From a virus, in the IMG/VR virus record IMGVR_UViG_2889849113_000003, positions 3,716 to 67,715 of that record: a DNA stretch of 64,000 nucleotides; one strand, written 5' to 3'. Of the stretch, positions 3,646 through 39,889 are shown in pieces. The stretch's first letter is position 1. Each line of letters starts with the position of its first letter. Under the pieces are notes generated by a model. The model did no database searches, was not told where the DNA came from, and saw only the letters and a program-made list of their open reading frames with translations. The position numbers and the translations under genes are program-made.

Positions 3646-3992
3646 CCGGCCGTAGTCTGCTCTGTGGCCAAAGGTGAGGACTTTTGTGCATCGCCGTCGC
3701 CGTCCTGCGCCAGCCCCAGAAGCCGCCCGGCGCGCTCGACGGCCTCGGCCTCGCTGCCATCCGACATCCCGCCGCCGGTGAGGGCGAGGTACTTGCCGGC
3801 CAGTGAGTGCAACGCAAGCAGCGCGCTGCGTAGCTCGTTGAGCTCGCGGTTCTGCGCCTCGGCATCGGCCAAGACTTCGCTGGCCAGCAATTCCTCGCGC
3901 TCCAGGGCTTCAAGGCGGTCTGCGGCAGCGCGCAGCTGCTGAGGAAGCGTCGCGTCAGCCACGGGGAACCCCCTCCAGTCCGAGATCCGCAA
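3618..3992 (-). CDS. Hypothetical coiled-coil protein
   Basis: Helical heptad-like content; start uncertain. Confidence 0.5.
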   Translation of the reverse strand: MRISDWRGFPVADATLPQQLRAAADRLEALEREELLASEVLADAEAQNRELNELRSALLALHSLAGKYLALTGGGMSDGSEAEAVERAGRLLGLAQDGDGDAQKSSPLATEQTTAGCEEAAPAP

Positions 3993-8205: not shown

Positions 8206-8417
8206 GGGGTGCTTCCTTCTTTCGTGCGCCCGGCCTTGGCCGGCTGGCGCTGCTGTGCCGGCGCTGCGGCTTTGGCGTGCTCGCGGGCGATCTGCTCGAC
8301 AGCCTCGGTCGGCATGTCAAGCGACGCGGCTGCGCTGGCCAGCGCTTCGGGCGTCTTGCCCAGGTACTGCTGGGCAGTGGCCAAGACCTTGGCGACGTAG
8401 GTGGTCGGATACGTCAT
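8202..8417 (-). CDS. Small hypothetical protein
   Basis: ATGA-coupled ORF. Confidence 0.5.
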   Translation of the reverse strand: MTYPTTYVAKVLATAQQYLGKTPEALASAAASLDMPTEAVEQIAREHAKAAAPAQQRQPAKAGRTKEGSTP

Positions 8418-8872
8418 GCAGCGGCCCTCGGCCCCTCGCTTGCCTGCCGCACCGTGTCTGCGATCTTTTGCGCCGGCTCGAAGTCGATCACCAGGCCGAG
8501 TGCCGCGCACTGGTTGCGCCAGTAGTTGACCTTGGCCTGCATCTCGGCGGCCAACTGACGCGTCATGAACTCGTTGTCCAGTACGGCATCGAGGGCGCGG
8601 TAGCCACCACCCTCCTGTTTGCGGTCACTCGGAATGGACACGAATGCCTGCACGGCAACGGCCGGCTGATTCGGGACTTCAATCCGAACTGAGCGGATCA
8701 GCCTGCGCGCCTGCTCCAGTCGCCATTGGTGCGCGGCAGTCGTGTTGTCCCACTGGAAATGCTCGTGCAGCGGGTGCGCCTTGTCCGCAGCCTGCTTCAC
8801 CACGTCCTCGGGCCGCAGCAGGCCGTCGTGCTCTGCTGCGATCCGCTCCAACTCACTCTTGATCGTGTCCAT
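8414..8872 (-). CDS. 152-aa protein directly downstream of the pentamer array, putative accessory factor
   Basis: GGAG RBS; LRPEDVV..A....HPLHEHFQWDNTTAAHQWRLEQARRLIRSV. Confidence 0.8.
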   Translation of the reverse strand: MDTIKSELERIAAEHDGLLRPEDVVKQAADKAHPLHEHFQWDNTTAAHQWRLEQARRLIRSVRIEVPNQPAVAVQAFVSIPSDRKQEGGGYRALDAVLDNEFMTRQLAAEMQAKVNYWRNQCAALGLVIDFEPAQKIADTVRQASEGPRAAA

Positions 8873-8886
8873 CTTCAACTCCTGTT

Positions 8887-9405
8887 GTTCCGTGCCTGCT
8901 GAGCCAAGCCAAACCCCTCCAGGCCATTCCTTTCCATGCCTGCCAGTCCGCGCCGCGCCCCGCCTTGCCGTGCCCCGCCTTGCCTGCCTCACGACGCCCG
9001 ACTTCGCCCAGCCGGGCCATTCCTAGCCTGCTGAGCAAAGCCCCACCACGCCTTACTGCGCCCGGCCGGTCCATGCCTGCCCTACCTCGCCAGTCCACGC
9101 TGTTCCTCGCCGCGCCTAGCCTGCTATGCCAAGCGTCACCCCGCCTTGTGAAGCCTTTCCGCTCCACGCCGCGCCACACCGGCCTCACCTCGCCTTGCCC
9201 GGCAATGCCAAACATCGCCATGCCTGGCCTCACGTCGCCCAGCCCAGCCACGCCAGCTGCGCCGTACCTATCCCAGCGCCGCCTTGCCTTACCTGCCTTG
9301 CCGAGACGAACCGGTCCTGGCCTTGCCTTGCCAAGCCTCGCCTTGCCATGCCTGCCGCACCGCGCCTCGCCAATCCAAAACTCGCCATGCCATGCCTTGC
9401 CTGCT
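8887..9405 (-). repeat. GGH-NN pentamer tandem array, putative guide-RNA locus
   Basis: Hand-parsed: 95 pentamers plus 11 tetramers = 519 bp; 82/95 begin GG; position 3 never G; positions 4-5 variable. Confidence 0.9.
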
Positions 9406-9408
9406 GCG

Positions 9409-10071
9409 TCAGGCAATACCGAATTGCGCTCTCACCGATGCGTCTTGGTCCGTGCCAATCACCTCGAAAGTGCCCCAGCCGCACCCCGCACTGCTTTTGC
9501 TGTCCGGGCGCCCAGCACCGATGCCGACCTGAAGCCCAACCCGCGACATCAGGTTTATTACGTCAGCCGCCTTGAACTGGCTCTGGTCGAACTTGATGCG
9601 CAGCTTTGCCGCCCAGGACTGGTACTGAGGGCGGGCGCGCACATCAACCACGCCGGTGGCGTTGCGGGTGTGCGCGGAGAAGGTCCGGCTCTCGCCGTAG
9701 ATGCGGATCAGCGGCAGGCCGTCGATGCGGTCGAAACCATCCGCCTCGATAAAGCAGCTCAACTTGGCCAAAGTCATTTTGAAGCCGACCAGCCGGCACG
9801 CGGAAATCATTCCGGCACGGAACGCGGCAGCATTCATGCCCTCCCAGCCATCGAACGAGCGATAGCGAGCTTCCTCTGCTTCGCGCTCGTAGTCGCGCGC
9901 CTCTCTGACCTTTTTGGATTTCGCAACTGAACCTTCGGCCATGCGGCTCATGAGTTCGGCCTTTTTCGAGAAGCGCTCTATGACCAGCGGCGCTGTGCCG
10001 CGGATCAGAAGTTCCAGAACACCGAAGTTCGGTGCGCTGATGACGACGTTTTCTTGCTTGGTAGTGCTCAT
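9409..10071 (-). CDS. Stand-alone Cas7/RAMP-like protein, 220 aa
   Basis: First strand LELLIRGTAPLVI; RPQYQSWAAKLRIKFD; C-terminal Gly-rich loop VGIGAGRP...GCGWGTFEV. Confidence 0.75.
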   Translation of the reverse strand: MSTTKQENVVISAPNFGVLELLIRGTAPLVIERFSKKAELMSRMAEGSVAKSKKVREARDYEREAEEARYRSFDGWEGMNAAAFRAGMISACRLVGFKMTLAKLSCFIEADGFDRIDGLPLIRIYGESRTFSAHTRNATGVVDVRARPQYQSWAAKLRIKFDQSQFKAADVINLMSRVGLQVGIGAGRPDSKSSAGCGWGTFEVIGTDQDASVRAQFGIA

Positions 10072-34605: not shown

Positions 34606-35571
34606 GTGACGGACGAAAAACCCAGCATCCGCGAGCAGTACGTCGTCGCGATGAACTCCACGCACCTGGAAGCGCACGCGGAGCGACTTCGCGCGGTGGA
34701 CCGCTTCATCGTGGCCGGCTGGGTCGCCGGCGGCGCGGTGGAGCGCCAGCGCCTGCGCCGAGTCGAGCAGCGGCGCCGGCTGCAGGGGCTGCCGCCGATC
34801 CCTGCGCTTGAGATCCCCGTGCCGGGCGCTGTCGCACCGGCGCGCATCACCGAACTCGGCCCGCTGCTGCTGCGTCTGGCGCAGGAGTGGGACAGCGTCA
34901 AGGCGCAGCACGCGCTGTCGCTGCGCTGGCAGGAGGCCCGCGAGGTCGCCATCCGCGAGACGGCGCGGGACCTGGCGCGCGAGCAGCAGGCGCTGGCCAA
35001 GGCGCCGGGGCGCGATGCGTCGCGAGCCGTCGAGCTCGCCGAATCCCTGCGGCGCCAGCAGCGCGAGGCACACGGCACCGCCGTGAGCGAGCAGGCCATG
35101 ATGCTGACGAAGCTGCGGACCTTGCCCGCGGCACGAGAGGCGCTGGGGCGCTGGGCGCTGGCGCAGGCGTCGAAATGGCCGGTGCAGGGGTTACCGCACC
35201 ACGCGCGGCCGGCGCAGGTCCGCGAGGCCATGGCGGCGAACCCGCTGCCGAACGATGACGGCGTCATGGCCATCGTCGGGCGCGTGCTCAAGGCGTGGCT
35301 TTCACCGCGGTGCGCGGCCTGCGGCGGCACTGGCCTGGTCTTTCAGCACGCCAGCGGCAAGAAGGCCAAGCGCACCGAGGCTGAGGCGGGCTATGGGCAC
35401 CTCACGCAATGCTCGTGCGGCGCCTGCAAGGGAACTGGCCTGGTGCGCGAGTCGCTGGGCGAGACGGATTCCGAGCGGCGCTTTGCGCACCACCTGCTGG
35501 ACCGTATGGGCGAGATGCTGACCGAGGTCGAGCGGGCGATGCGGGACTTTCTGCGGGGGCGCGAGGCGTAG
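34606..35571 (+). CDS. Q-like antiterminator with DnaJ-type Zn finger
   Basis: CAACGGTG and CGACKGTG repeats; last gene of rightward early operon. Confidence 0.65.
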   Translation: MTDEKPSIREQYVVAMNSTHLEAHAERLRAVDRFIVAGWVAGGAVERQRLRRVEQRRRLQGLPPIPALEIPVPGAVAPARITELGPLLLRLAQEWDSVKAQHALSLRWQEAREVAIRETARDLAREQQALAKAPGRDASRAVELAESLRRQQREAHGTAVSEQAMMLTKLRTLPAAREALGRWALAQASKWPVQGLPHHARPAQVREAMAANPLPNDDGVMAIVGRVLKAWLSPRCAACGGTGLVFQHASGKKAKRTEAEAGYGHLTQCSCGACKGTGLVRESLGETDSERRFAHHLLDRMGEMLTEVERAMRDFLRGREA

Positions 35572-35595
35572 CGGCTCGGAATCGCCCGGAAGGGG

Positions 35596-35790
35596 TCAAG
35601 CCGGCCGCTCGGCGATCCAGTGCGTGCCCTCGCCGAACTCTGCGCAGCACATCGCCACCTGGCGCTCGAAGCTCGCGAGCACGGCGTCGGTCTTCAGGCG
35701 CCAGGGGCAGCCGCCGGCCAGGCCGTTCAGGCGCCACTCGATCCGAATTTCCACCGCCGCGGCGCCGTCGGTTTCGGGCTGGTCGCTCAT
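35596..35790 (-). CDS. Small hypothetical protein
   Basis: Last gene of leftward accessory operon. Confidence 0.5.
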   Translation of the reverse strand: MSDQPETDGAAAVEIRIEWRLNGLAGGCPWRLKTDAVLASFERQVAMCCAEFGEGTHWIAERPA

Positions 35791-35891
35791 GGCGTAAATC
35801 CTCTGGAAGGGGTGCTGTGCAACTAAGCTTGAACTGATCTGCGCGTCTTGTGCAAATAGCCTTGAACGGGTGCCAAACCGCCGGAAGGGGG

Positions 35892-37202
35892 TCAAGCCTC
35901 GCCGGCCACGCGCCGGATGACCGTCGGCAGCTTCGCCGGGTCCTCGATGTTCACGGGGATCGGTGGCAGCCAGTTCAGCTTGAAGCGCCGCGGCCCGGTT
36001 CTCGGGCCGGTCCAGACGCCGTGCCAGTGCGCCGCTCGCACGTGTGGTCGCATCGGCGCCCGGCTGCCGTCGATGGTGATTTCAGGCTCGCGGCGCGCTG
36101 CATGCGCTGCCCGGATCGCGCCACCGATGCGCACCGCCACGTCCCACTCGCGCGGCTTCTGTGGCGGAAAGAGGCGCGGCCCCCGCTTGGTCTTCACCGG
36201 CTCCGGCCGCTGCGGCATCTCGCCGCCCAAGTCCGGCGCGTCGGTGCACAGGTACAACGTGAGCGACAGGATCGGCATGACCTGGCGCATGACGCGCGCC
36301 AGCGCCTCGGGCGGCAGGGTGTAGCCGGGGTCCAACTGGCGCACCGCGCGCTCGACGCACTCCGGCAACGACCACGGGCCCAGCGCGATGGCGACCGAGT
36401 CCAGGGTGTCGCGGGCCAGGAACGTGATGAGCAGGTGGGGATGGGTGTCGGGCTGCCCCGGCGCATGGCCTGGATCGAGGCCGACGAAAGCGCCCGTGAG
36501 CGGGTCCGGCGCACCCTGGCCGACATCCATGCCCGGCGTCTCGATGAAGACGCACCACTCCGGCAGCCGGGTCAGCACGTTGTGCGGGATGTCGCCCCTG
36601 ACCTCGGTGTCGATGAGCGCCCGGTACACGTCGGGGTCGAAGCGGTAGACGCCCTGCGACGGCCGCCAGGCGCCCAGCAGCGTCAGCATCGTGGCCTGGT
36701 TGACGGCATCCGCCGCGCTGATGCCGCGAGCGCGCAACTCGGCTTCGATCTCGTGCAGCACGAGATGCGACGGGATGAAGCACCACGCGGGCCAGATGGC
36801 CTCGCGCGTGGTCTTCGGGATCTCGCCGCGGCGCGCGCGCACCACGTCGAGCCGCCTCCACAGGTCCGGGTGCGCCATCTCCACGCCCTTGAGCGCGGCG
36901 CGGGCCTGCATCGCCGCGGCGATGGCCGGGCGGCCAATGTCGCTGCGCACCTCCAGGCCGATCGCCTCGCACACCGCATCCGGCGCACCGCCGGCCTCGC
37001 GGTGCAGGCGATACCAGCGCTCCATCACGTCGCCGGCATCAACCTGCGCGAGGTCAAGGCCGTTGCCTTGCGCGAATGCCTGCAGCGGCGCGACGTTGAA
37101 GCTGATGTCCAAGCTCACCGGGTCGCGCTTGATCGCGAGGTCTGCGAAGCGAAGGCCGGGCACGAGGCGAAGCCGGGAAAGGGGGTCGGGGGCGAAGGGC
37201 AT
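35892..37202 (-). CDS. AcrVA2-family anti-CRISPR-like protein with N-terminal extension
   Basis: WPAWCFIP, WRPSQGVYRFDPD, LPEWCVFIETPG, LYLC, KTKRGPRLFP, RPHVRAAHWHGVWTG, WLPP; family recognised from memory. Confidence 0.75.
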   Translation of the reverse strand: MPFAPDPLSRLRLVPGLRFADLAIKRDPVSLDISFNVAPLQAFAQGNGLDLAQVDAGDVMERWYRLHREAGGAPDAVCEAIGLEVRSDIGRPAIAAAMQARAALKGVEMAHPDLWRRLDVVRARRGEIPKTTREAIWPAWCFIPSHLVLHEIEAELRARGISAADAVNQATMLTLLGAWRPSQGVYRFDPDVYRALIDTEVRGDIPHNVLTRLPEWCVFIETPGMDVGQGAPDPLTGAFVGLDPGHAPGQPDTHPHLLITFLARDTLDSVAIALGPWSLPECVERAVRQLDPGYTLPPEALARVMRQVMPILSLTLYLCTDAPDLGGEMPQRPEPVKTKRGPRLFPPQKPREWDVAVRIGGAIRAAHAARREPEITIDGSRAPMRPHVRAAHWHGVWTGPRTGPRRFKLNWLPPIPVNIEDPAKLPTVIRRVAGEA

Positions 37203-37207
37203 GAGCG

Positions 37208-37717
37208 TTAAGAGTCGGCGTTTCCGCCGGAGAGGGCGGCAGCGCCAGCCTCGGCCGCCTCCAGCGCTGCCTTGACATTCATGGCGACATCCATCACGTC
37301 CTCCACCACTTCGGCGGCGGTCCATCGCTTCTGTTCCATCGGCGTGAAGCCGGTCACCGGCTCAAGGCCGCGATCCTCGCGCCAATCGTTGAAGTGTTCG
37401 AGCAGTGCACGTCGGAAGTCGTCTATGCGCTCCTGCCACTCCGGCGACAGCGGCGGCAGGTCCACAACATCAGTGCAGTGGCCGTAGTCCCAGCCCCACC
37501 AGTACCAGCCGGCAGGGCGCATCATGCCCTCGCCCTCGCCCTCAAACGTGATGCCCCAATGGCACCTGAAGTCCAGATCAGTGCCGGCGGCCCAGTGGTC
37601 GAGCGGGACGCCAATGTAGGCCAGCAGCGACATCGGGCCACGCAGCACCAGGGCGCGGAGCGGCGTGCCGGCGATGGGGAAGTCCGCGAGCGGAGGTTGA
37701 GGGGTGAAAAATTCCAT
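37208..37717 (-). CDS. Phage hypothetical protein
   Basis: YIGVP...HWGITF...WWGWDYGH. Confidence 0.7.
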   Translation of the reverse strand: MEFFTPQPPLADFPIAGTPLRALVLRGPMSLLAYIGVPLDHWAAGTDLDFRCHWGITFEGEGEGMMRPAGWYWWGWDYGHCTDVVDLPPLSPEWQERIDDFRRALLEHFNDWREDRGLEPVTGFTPMEQKRWTAAEVVEDVMDVAMNVKAALEAAEAGAAALSGGNADS

Positions 37718-37791
37718 GGGTCGGGGCGCGCGTTGCGCTGGAAGAGGTCGGCCCGGCGGGCGGCCGGGCCAGGGGTTGCACGGGAAGGGGC

Positions 37792-38289
37792 TCAGCGCCC
37801 CGCGCTCTTGGCCCACTGGCCGTGGCGCTCGACCTTGAACGCCCAGCCGGTGCTGTAGGAGCACTCGATGCCCGCGGCCAGGACGCCATCGACCCAGACG
37901 TTCGCGCTGCCGCCGTCGCCGTCGCCGGCCCACCGCATTTCCTGCTGCGCCGCCCGAATCGCCTCCTCAACGCTGGCGGCCGGTTTCGAGACGGCGCCGC
38001 AGGTCCACCGCACGCCCTTCACGCGCTCGGCCTCCTTGCGCTTTTGCAAGTGGGCCGTGGCGTTGTCCAGCGAGCGGAAGGACACGACGCCATCGGGCGG
38101 GTACGGGCCGCCCTGGTCGCGCGGATCGCCGGTGTAGCGGGTCTGCGTGTCGTCGCGCCCGGTGATGTCCGTGACCGTGCGCCGCATCACGCCATCGGCG
38201 CGCCGCTCCACGAGGATGATGCGATCGCCGCTGCTGAAGGTGCCGGGGTTCTCCTTGATGCCGCCGACGGGCTGCCAGGTGTCTTGCAT
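37792..38289 (-). CDS. Hypothetical protein
   Basis: AGGAG RBS, cassette context. Confidence 0.65.
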   Translation of the reverse strand: MQDTWQPVGGIKENPGTFSSGDRIILVERRADGVMRRTVTDITGRDDTQTRYTGDPRDQGGPYPPDGVVSFRSLDNATAHLQKRKEAERVKGVRWTCGAVSKPAASVEEAIRAAQQEMRWAGDGDGGSANVWVDGVLAAGIECSYSTGWAFKVERHGQWAKSAGR

Positions 38290-38353
38290 GGTGAATCTCC
38301 TGCGAAGTTGCAACGATGCCGGCGGCGCGGACCGCCGGTGAAAGGCGGAAGGG

Positions 38354-38623
38354 TCAGGCCTCTTGCGCCTCGAGCGCCGCCCGCGCTTCGCGCTGCATGC
38401 GGTCCCACTCGCCATTGCCCTCGTGCACGTCGCGCAGCCAGGCCAGGCCCACGGCCGAGATGCGCTCGATGGCATCGGTGGACAGTTCGCAGTTGCAGCC
38501 GTTGCTTGCGTAGCGGTCGATGCTGTCCGTGTCGTGCAGCGCGGCTTCGACGGCGGCGCGGTCCTTGAGCATGTCGCCGGTCTGCTCGATGTAGCCGGAC
38601 AGGATGTTGAAGAGGTCGGGCAT
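38354..38623 (-). CDS. Small acidic protein, anti-defence candidate
   Basis: 89 aa, acidic, RBS. Confidence 0.65.
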   Translation of the reverse strand: MPDLFNILSGYIEQTGDMLKDRAAVEAALHDTDSIDRYASNGCNCELSTDAIERISAVGLAWLRDVHEGNGEWDRMQREARAALEAQEA

Positions 38624-38706
38624 AGGGGCTCCTGGGAAGTGCGGGAAAGGGTCTGCCTGTGCGGCAGTCAAGGCGCACCACGCTGGCGCAGCGCGCCGGG
38701 TGTGCG

Positions 38707-39231
38707 TCAGCCGCGGCGCACCGCGTACTCGTAGGAGCGGCCCGCCTTGTCCATGAGCCAGCCCAGCTGCGTGCCGCTGTAGATCGTCTCGTCGCCGTCG
38801 CGCTCCTCGTCCGTGAGCGTCAGACCCTCCACGGTCACGATGTCGTCGCGGTCGAATGTGGCGCTGGCGCGGCCCTCCTCGGCCACGATGGCGGCCTCCA
38901 TATCGGAGCCGTCGGGCTCGCAGGCGATCAGCAGCCCGGTGCTCTTGAGGCAGGCAATCGTGTAGGTCGGCGCAGCGTTGGGAAACGCCTTGTCGAGTTC
39001 GCGATCCCACAGCGATTGCACGAAGTCCCGCACGCCGAAGCCGTCATCCCAGCCGCTGTCGCCATCCACGAACAGTTGGTCATTGCTGAGGCGGTTGTCA
39101 GCTCGCGCGGACACCTCGGCGTCCGGGAACTGCTCGCGCAGCCGCTTTGCCACGTAGGCCGCCCAGGTGGCTGCATCGGCTTCGGTGGCGTTGCCCATGG
39201 TCTGTGCGGTGGCGATGAATTCGATCTTCAT
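38707..39231 (-). CDS. Acidic protein, anti-defence candidate
   Basis: First gene after promoter 39307-39335. Confidence 0.65.
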   Translation of the reverse strand: MKIEFIATAQTMGNATEADAATWAAYVAKRLREQFPDAEVSARADNRLSNDQLFVDGDSGWDDGFGVRDFVQSLWDRELDKAFPNAAPTYTIACLKSTGLLIACEPDGSDMEAAIVAEEGRASATFDRDDIVTVEGLTLTDEERDGDETIYSGTQLGWLMDKAGRSYEYAVRRG

Positions 39232-39349: not shown

Positions 39350-39889
39350 TCATTCGGATGACTTCACAACCAATCGCAACGACGGGTGCTCCCCCAGCCG
39401 CAGCAGCAGCAGCTCATGCGCCGCCGGCTGCGGTCGCTGCGCCGACACGCCGCCGCTGCGCCGGTAGCGGCTGAAGGTGTTGGGGTCGGCAATGCGCATG
39501 AGCCGCGCGCCCTGGGCGTTGCTCAGGCCGTGCGCCTGCGCCAGCGCCTCGATGGCGGCGCCGTCACAGGGAGGCAGCGCCGGCAGGTCGCGCTCCGGGT
39601 GCGGCTCGGTGCGCGTCTCGTCGCGCCAGGCCAGCCGCAGCGTCGGGTGCCGGTCCAGGCGCAGCAGCAGCATCTCCAGAGTCGCCGCGGGGATCGCGCG
39701 CAGGCCGGTGCGGTAGCGCGTGAAGCTGACAGAGTCGAGCAGCCGCACCAGCGCCGCAGCACCCGCGTCTGTCAGGTTGTGCTGGCGCGCCAGGCGCTCG
39801 ACGGCTTCCGGCGTGCCCGGCGGCAGTTCGGGGATGTCGTCGGCGCGCGGGCGCGCGGGGGCTTGTAGGGCAGGCATTCGTGTTTCCAC
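39350..39889 (-). CDS. Tandem double-HTH protein, Aca-like regulator candidate
   Basis: Internal duplication: two LA..H.L..A..A.L......F.RYR...LLLLRL..HP.LRL halves. Confidence 0.7.
   Translation of the reverse strand: METRMPALQAPARPRADDIPELPPGTPEAVERLARQHNLTDAGAAALVRLLDSVSFTRYRTGLRAIPAATLEMLLLRLDRHPTLRLAWRDETRTEPHPERDLPALPPCDGAAIEALAQAHGLSNAQGARLMRIADPNTFSRYRRSGGVSAQRPQPAAHELLLLRLGEHPSLRLVVKSSE

Follow-up and report, generated by a model that had tools for sequence, protein, structure and literature searches.

Which protein does a member of the AcrVA2/FinQ family act on in a bacterium in whose genome no Cas12a is found, and what does a small domain fused to its N-terminus contribute? Both questions are raised by a minus-strand gene (positions 35892–37202, stop codon included; 436 aa) in the 64,000-nucleotide stretch of prophage DNA analysed here (hereafter, the window; positions 3,716 to 67,715 of the IMG/VR virus record IMGVR_UViG_2889849113_000003). 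On balance, we read its product as a two-domain prophage accessory protein, in which an AcrVA2/FinQ-type silencer core is combined with an accessory module and directed at a target other than Cas12a. The novelty lies in the module, a representative of an undescribed family that here is fused to the core, in a distant phylum is encoded next to an AcrVA2-like gene, and in other proteins is attached to Aca2 regulators.

AcrVA2 attaches to an LSKT peptide at the N-terminus of Cas12a and brings about a translation-dependent loss of the Cas12a mRNA (Marino et al., bioRxiv 10.1101/2022.11.29.518452). About 1,800 proteins make up the family, most of them encoded in hosts that lack Cas12a. Among them is the homologue FinQ, which lowers the mRNA of F transfer genes; the family can therefore act on non-CRISPR targets (bioRxiv 10.1101/2022.11.29.518452).

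The AcrVA2-like core and its N-terminal module

An earlier note on this stretch, made from the sequence alone, had related some 310 C-terminal residues of the protein to AcrVA2 and FinQ, and had named an AcrVA2 profile search as a means of checking it. That search is significant, and both relationships hold over a somewhat longer region of ~340 aa (residues ~95–436; 35895–36920, minus strand). A phmmer comparison with PDB sequences aligned residues 163–418 with residues 64–317 of the AcrVA2 chain (7CI1/7CI2, E 8.1e-18), and the PHROGs profile phrog_6160 matched residues 131–420 over its positions 34–319 of 322 (E 2.3e-40). A large protein collection held 278 relatives, and PF26125, which is named 'AcrVA2-like' according to a contig look-up, was annotated on 120 of the 120 matches listed; several relatives carry the NCBI name 'AcrVA2 family anti-CRISPR protein'. 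The whole protein itself matched no Pfam or NCBIfam family in library versions that did not contain PF26125, so that this result is no evidence against membership. By tblastn, relatives were found in 37 phage records (with hosts such as Erwinia, Leptospira, Lactobacillus and Pasteurella), one of them a Shewanella phage gene annotated as AcrVA2, and in 541 plasmid records, mostly of conjugative plasmids, where some are annotated 'protein finQ' (27% identity, E 1e-13). None of the plasmid matches covered residues 1–74 of the query, and megablast with 22 kb of surrounding DNA matched no phage record.

The predicted fold agrees with the sequence comparison. A joint MAFFT alignment misplaced the small proteins and was dropped, and the full-length fold was built from cores only (alignment A5); the resulting AlphaFold2 model of the whole protein has a mean predicted local distance difference test score (pLDDT) of 83.6 and a predicted template modelling score of 0.78. 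In a Foldseek search of the PDB, its sole matches were the AcrVA2 structures 7CI2_A and 7CI1 (E 1e-14, probability 1.00, template modelling (TM) score 0.70–0.72 by target), the next entry having an E value of 0.38. All five residues known to be mutationally important in AcrVA2 are retained. The signature motif RPHVRAAHWHGVWTG (residues 385–399; 36006–36050, minus strand) contains H387, R389 and H392, the counterparts of AcrVA2 H286, R288 and H291, and the segment GAWRPSQGVYRFD (residues 177–189; 36636–36674, minus strand) contains W179 and D189, the counterparts of W79 and D89; residues were mapped from the HMMER alignment with 7CI1, with an offset for the one extra N-terminal residue of the PDB chain. 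In AcrVA2, H286A, R288A and H291A abolish activity, and W79A and D89A weaken it (bioRxiv 10.1101/2022.11.29.518452). Among 120 relatives, the first three positions are invariant and the other two nearly so. With sequence, modelled fold and signature residues in agreement, the assignment of residues ~95–436 to a genuine member of the AcrVA2/FinQ family is secure. 'Anti-CRISPR' is used here as a family name, and any anti-CRISPR activity of this particular gene would follow from homology at most.

Typical family members are 300–390 aa long and cover only about 74–78% of the query, which leaves ~90–95 N-terminal residues as an extra part. The earlier note had taken about 90 of them for a separate fused domain, a view that paralogues, profile searches and a confident structural model all bear out. 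When the genome that carries the prophage (7.8 Mb in 215 contigs, 99.5% complete) was searched with the whole protein, the gene itself and seven further places were found, the latter matching residues 10–91 only (E 5e-11 to 2e-5). All seven are stand-alone genes encoding proteins of about 103 aa that end in ...GGGF[SAF]Y[AP]PGHA. A module profile run against 1.84 billion representatives recovered 144 proteins at E values up to 1e-3, nearly all of them 85–125 aa long, and the only AcrVA2-like one was the window protein's own cluster. Conversely, a profile of 60 members matched the window protein over positions 5–92 of 104 (E 1.2e-24), and the two share the motifs IPxG-xF-DL and WY-xHR-xGGxPDPV. 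Modelled with AlphaFold2 from 60 relatives, the module forms a beta-hairpin followed by three helices (pLDDT 87); in the full-length model, residues 80–91, directly before the core, have a pLDDT below 50. As far as sequence and model can tell, the N-terminal module (residues ~8–90; 36933–37181, minus strand) is thus a separate, independently folding domain from an undescribed family of stand-alone proteins of ~100 aa. This family had no match in Pfam, PHROGs (both run on 60 members) or NCBIfam, nor a usable one in a profile search of PDB sequences, and its fold had no close counterpart in the PDB with Foldseek (best E 0.87), in the VIA wide search (best Z 2.9) or in the atlas searched by shape (TM below 0.4).

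The only other relative with such an extension is P0004, a protein of 437 aa encoded on a 5.7-kb metagenome contig and 67% identical to the window protein overall. Over residues 12–100 the two are 60% identical, and the ratio of nonsynonymous to synonymous substitution rates (dN/dS) is 0.45 for the module and 0.26 for the core, at a synonymous divergence (about 0.85) that is near saturation. The module is therefore under purifying selection in the fusion.

Several features of the stand-alone copies deserve mention in their own right. Many end in a conserved tail of the form ...G-x-x-x-x-PG[HRQ]A that the fused forms do not have (alignment A3). No single neighbouring gene is common to all copies. 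Four of the seven in the host (on contigs C145, C46, C155 and C168) follow a conserved open reading frame (ORF) of ~230 aa that is rich in Lys and Ala, resembles histone H1 (MPTRKTAATKKVAAKK...) and belongs to no Pfam family (for example, L006:1902–2603, minus strand); upstream of these four copies, DNA similarity reaches 0.5–1.4 kb. Two of the seven precede an ORF of ~150 aa, again without a Pfam family, and one stand-alone gene (C155:2427–2753) lies 5 kb from the end of a type I-E repeat array. P0132, a 113-aa module protein from an ENA contig, has a C-terminal tail that matches Clp protease (E 3e-8) and is probably a chimeric or misassembled ORF.

Genetic links between the module and anti-defence loci

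Fusion of the module to an AcrVA2-like core is rare: a word-based search of 5.8 billion clusters for proteins of 239–763 aa returned two cases, the window protein and P0004. Physical proximity of separate genes was found as well. In one of 80 genomic AcrVA2-like loci (L069), from a metagenome-assembled genome of Blastocatellia (Acidobacteriota), an intact module gene of 104 aa (E 3.5e-28, 32% identical to the window module) precedes a 346-aa AcrVA2-like gene, with 85 nt between them. The two lie on a small integrative element (L069:80–4047, contig JANNYF010000227.1) that is bounded by an integrase gene and tRNA-Arg, in the order AlpA-like excisionase, 181-aa gene, 104-aa module, 346-aa AcrVA2-like gene, integrase, tRNA-Arg. 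Among 160 further viral and metagenomic AcrVA2-like loci there was a single case, L202, in which a truncated module gene (...GGERDPVQDDLIAEV...QPGQA) lies downstream of the AcrVA2-like gene, on the opposite strand and 30 nt away. Because the module is so scarce (searching 201 genomes from the host's order gave 15 matches, eight of these in the host itself), only about 0.03 such co-occurrences would be expected by chance in the ~1.5 Mb of flanks examined, a rough inference whose background comes from one order.

The module also accompanies regulators of the kind found with anti-CRISPR (Acr) genes. It follows an Aca2/YdiL domain on the C-terminal side in P0128 and P0129 (PF08965; 55 bits, with a cut-off of 23.8) and an HTH_31 domain in P0130. 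In locus L029, four small genes in a row lead up to the Aca2–module gene, with an integrase gene alongside, and other stand-alone members stand in small-gene runs on mobile elements, such as one behind DUF3846 and ParB_N genes. Taken together, the rare fusion, the adjacency in L069 and the Aca2/YdiL fusions elsewhere constitute a recurrent though rare genetic link, which points to a real functional link of the module with anti-defence loci. As a separate observation, the L029 segment (L029:3234–6539, from Logan SRR14932485) lies downstream of a DUF932 gene, its small genes encode 93, 152, 56 and 66 aa, and its layout recalls an acr–aca operon placed at the border of an integrative element.

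The likely target and the role of the module

The host genome supports the suggestion, already made in the earlier note, that the natural target may not be Cas12a. The Cas12a model TIGR04330 had no match in this 99.5%-complete genome, and the same search, as a positive control, found a Cas12a of 1,416 aa in one of the 401 genomes of the class; a target other than Cas12a is therefore likely. The gene is found neither in a host with Cas12a, the context of AcrVA2 as a type V-A anti-CRISPR, nor on a conjugative plasmid, the location typical of FinQ. A survey of defence systems, which the note had also proposed for the host clade, yielded two typed CRISPR-Cas loci in the host. A type I-E locus (C155:7723–25039; L026, L027) comprises 108 repeats (GGTTCATCCCCGCTCGTGCGGGAAATAC, 61-bp period), Cas1, Cas7e, Cse1 and Cas3, and a type I-U/I-G locus (C33:429–8155; L028) comprises 15 repeats of 37 nt, GSU0053, GSU0054 and a Cas3-type helicase, with three more repeats on contig C58. 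We consider it more likely that the gene acts on a protein from the host's defences or from a competing mobile element, and the Cas proteins of the two host systems are the obvious candidates. None of the 118 spacers extracted (106 of type I-E and 12 of type I-U/I-G) matches the window. One candidate for self-targeting, the best match outside the arrays, was rejected as probably due to chance: type I-E spacer 24 agrees at 27/33 positions with C24:34157–34183, which belongs to the same phage-like region and lies 2 kb to the left of where the window begins. The first 14 bases are perfect, but there is no AAG protospacer-adjacent motif, and ~0.06 such matches are expected over all spacers together.

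In the two-domain reading that we favour, the core, by homology to AcrVA2, would bind a short segment within one specific target protein, probably while that protein emerges from the ribosome, and this binding would bring about loss of the target's mRNA in a step dependent on the conserved HxR..H motif. The module, joined to the core in the model through the poorly predicted stretch, would most likely act as an accessory binding or regulatory domain, for example as an additional point of contact with the target or with some host factor. Several points weigh against this reading. The module and the core are mostly found apart: 238 of the 240 other AcrVA2-like loci have no module nearby, which makes the partnership facultative at best, five module-carrying genomes have no AcrVA2-like gene at all, and the host has one AcrVA2-like gene against seven stand-alone modules. 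A quick maximum-likelihood tree does not place the L069 core as sister to the fused clade, which is weak evidence given that both are long branches, and the branch that leads to the window core is itself very long (1.56 substitutions per site), so that the function of this core may have drifted. Furthermore, there is no convincing self-targeting spacer among the 118 host spacers, and even for AcrVA2 the mechanism is only partly known, with gaps that include how the mRNA is destroyed (bioRxiv 10.1101/2022.11.29.518452).

A bolder proposal, which we put forward tentatively, is that the ~100-aa family constitutes a new class of partners or adaptors of AcrVA2/FinQ silencers, or more broadly a new domain associated with anti-defence, and that in this phage it would retarget or gate the mRNA-silencing core towards a host system other than Cas12a, such as type I-E or I-U/I-G CRISPR-Cas. 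For the role of the module, we rank an accessory binding or regulatory domain first, an independent anti-defence protein fused to the core second, and an auto-inhibitor or DNA-binding autoregulator third.

The second of these options seems rather unlikely, though it is the most probable of the competing explanations. The module would then itself be a small Acr-like protein, and one polypeptide would combine two independent inhibitors, resembling the dual strategy of AcrVA1 and AcrVA2 but in a single chain. The position of the module behind an Aca2/YdiL helix-turn-helix (HTH) domain in P0128 and P0129 reproduces a known layout of Acr–Aca fusions, yet YdiL-like domains also occur outside acr loci. 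The small-gene run beside the integrase in L029, the stand-alone copies in small-gene operons on mobile elements and the low pLDDT of residues 80–91 before the core would suit two autonomous units, whereas seven copies in the host chromosome, some of them in apparently ordinary surroundings, and one copy that, in small genomes from this order, is flanked by thrC and an mrp-type gene would be unusual for an Acr. Moreover, no known Acr or defence-related family matched the module.

Less probable still is a role of the module as an auto-inhibitory, antitoxin-like regulator that restrains the potentially harmful mRNA-silencing activity of the core, or as an Aca-like DNA-binding autorepressor. The small gene before a larger effector gene in L069 would agree with this, as would the placement of the module behind DNA-binding domains, which recalls the toxin-binding domains of type II antitoxins; however, most modules have no adjoining effector gene, and nearly all AcrVA2/FinQ family members (300–390 aa) lack the module, so that the core needs no such regulator. 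Resemblance of the module itself to DNA-binding domains comes from language-model neighbours of a stand-alone member in XRE-type HTH clusters (score 0.88) and from weak structural matches to the N-domains of TetR-type HTH proteins (Z 2.8), but both scores are at noise level according to the tools' own notes, the former being offered as a lead only. The module had no match to a Pfam HTH family, and its modelled beta-hairpin and three helices do not include a classical helix-turn-helix.

The reading frame and its start also had to be considered. The ORF call runs on the minus strand from an ATG at 37202, 5 nt after the stop codon of the upstream gene, to a stop codon at 35892–35894. The opposite strand contains a chance ORF of 453 aa, so that frame length alone is uninformative here and homology decides. 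GC content at third codon positions is 0.87 compared with 0.53 at second positions, in DNA of 70% GC, and with hundreds of homologues at hand the 436-aa frame is a true coding sequence, not one left open by chance at high GC. A GTG at codon 14 offers an alternative start and would give the 423-aa product listed as P0003 in the protein collection; the first residues of stand-alone module proteins, though, align with residues ~8–22 of the window protein, and since the family match thus begins at residue ~8, the sequence favours the ATG. That the N-terminal extension is an annotation artefact, with translation starting internally (for example, at M60 or M97) and the upstream frame open by chance, is very unlikely: although long chance ORFs are frequent here, no clear Shine–Dalgarno sequence was found before the ATG, and P0003 begins at the GTG, the region fits a protein-family profile (E 1e-24), is conserved under constraint in P0004, has a confident fold and starts close behind the upstream stop, and the homologous ATG of the other fused locus (L001) follows a GAGGG box and an upstream stop.

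Among bacterial proteins, AcrVA2 alone is reported to recognise a nascent protein and then bring about the destruction of one specific mRNA. A family member whose host carries two typed CRISPR-Cas systems but not Cas12a offers a concrete case in which to search for a target other than Cas12a, and the rare fusion or adjacency with a small domain that also joins Aca2 provides a testable lead on accessory factors. If the adaptor or partner proposal is true, it would give a first handle on target choice in this large family; if the module is irrelevant, the gene is simply one more AcrVA2/FinQ family member. In either case, we regard it as a tractable entry point, of moderate interest, to the targets and accessory factors of the family.

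Prophage setting and comparison with known systems

The gene lies inside the prophage, between a recombination exonuclease gene (10.1–11.0 kb) and the genes for the large terminase (54.4–56.1 kb), head protease (57.6–58.7 kb) and major head protein (58.7–60.1 kb); an HNH endonuclease gene is located at 21.7–22.6 kb. It is the fifth gene in a leftward run of unannotated genes. The four co-oriented ORFs upstream (37208–39231, minus strand; about 173, 165, 89 and 174 aa), none of which scores above the Pfam curated cut-offs, are probably on the same transcript, and further upstream a 179-aa protein (39350–39889, minus strand) weakly resembles an MqsA-type HTH domain (PF15731 at E 2e-4, under the curated cut-off). 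Directly downstream are a 64-aa ORF without a Pfam match (35596–35790, minus strand) and a convergent 321-aa CxxC-rich gene (34606–35571, plus strand), which serves as a syntenic anchor shared with the fused locus L001 (39% identity, E 2e-22 by tblastn). In L001, the fused gene takes the same position relative to the CxxC homologue, and the upstream cargo is different, the four window genes not being conserved there; the site is thus a variable accessory slot in related phages.

A scan of 35.3–40.2 kb for promoters and terminators returned nothing useful. A motif of the form CCCC(C)TT(T)CC(C)GG was observed on the minus strand after the stop codons of the AcrVA2-like gene (35880–35895) and of the 64-aa ORF (35590–35600), and again just inside the 5′ end of the AcrVA2-like coding sequence, past the stop codon of the upstream gene (37170–37195).

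The earlier note had also credited this phage with a Cas7-like module of its own, and the prophage does carry a pentamer-repeat array and a gene of the repeat-associated mysterious protein (RAMP) type at 8.4–10.1 kb. The array (Tandem Repeats Finder periods 5, 10 and 15; 8952–9353) lies within 8414–10059, between a 152-aa gene and the RAMP-like gene of ~216 aa, neither of which belongs to a Pfam family. Together, the array and the RAMP-like gene form a candidate VIPR system, a class described in bioRxiv 10.64898/2026.04.26.720920. Nothing was seen that ties the AcrVA2-like gene to this candidate locus 26 kb away.

Of the known systems, AcrVA2 from a Moraxella bovoculi prophage (7CI1/7CI2; PF26125) is the nearest in kind. 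It shares with the window protein homology over ~255–340 residues, the fold, the same five key residues including the HxR..H motif and the status of an accessory gene on a prophage. The window protein differs in its low identity (~20%) and long branch, in the additional N-terminal domain of 90 residues, in a host without Cas12a, and in that no AcrVA1 neighbour was seen beside its gene. FinQ, the fertility inhibitor of IncI and F-like plasmids, belongs to the same family as the window core; unlike the window gene, it is found on conjugative plasmids of enterobacteria and has no N-terminal module. The module itself aligns over its whole length with the family of WP_051242624.1, a 'hypothetical protein' of ~100 aa from Azohydromonas australica, with the difference that the C-terminal tail of the stand-alone proteins, which often ends in PG[HRQ]A, is replaced in the fusion by the link to the core. 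Acr–Aca fusion proteins, of which AcrIIA1 is one, and the Aca2 regulator (PF08965) provide the remaining parallel. The window protein has no HTH match in Pfam, and its domain order differs from theirs; the likeness is that the module is joined to Aca2/YdiL domains elsewhere and to an Acr-family protein here, and it therefore keeps company typical of acr loci.

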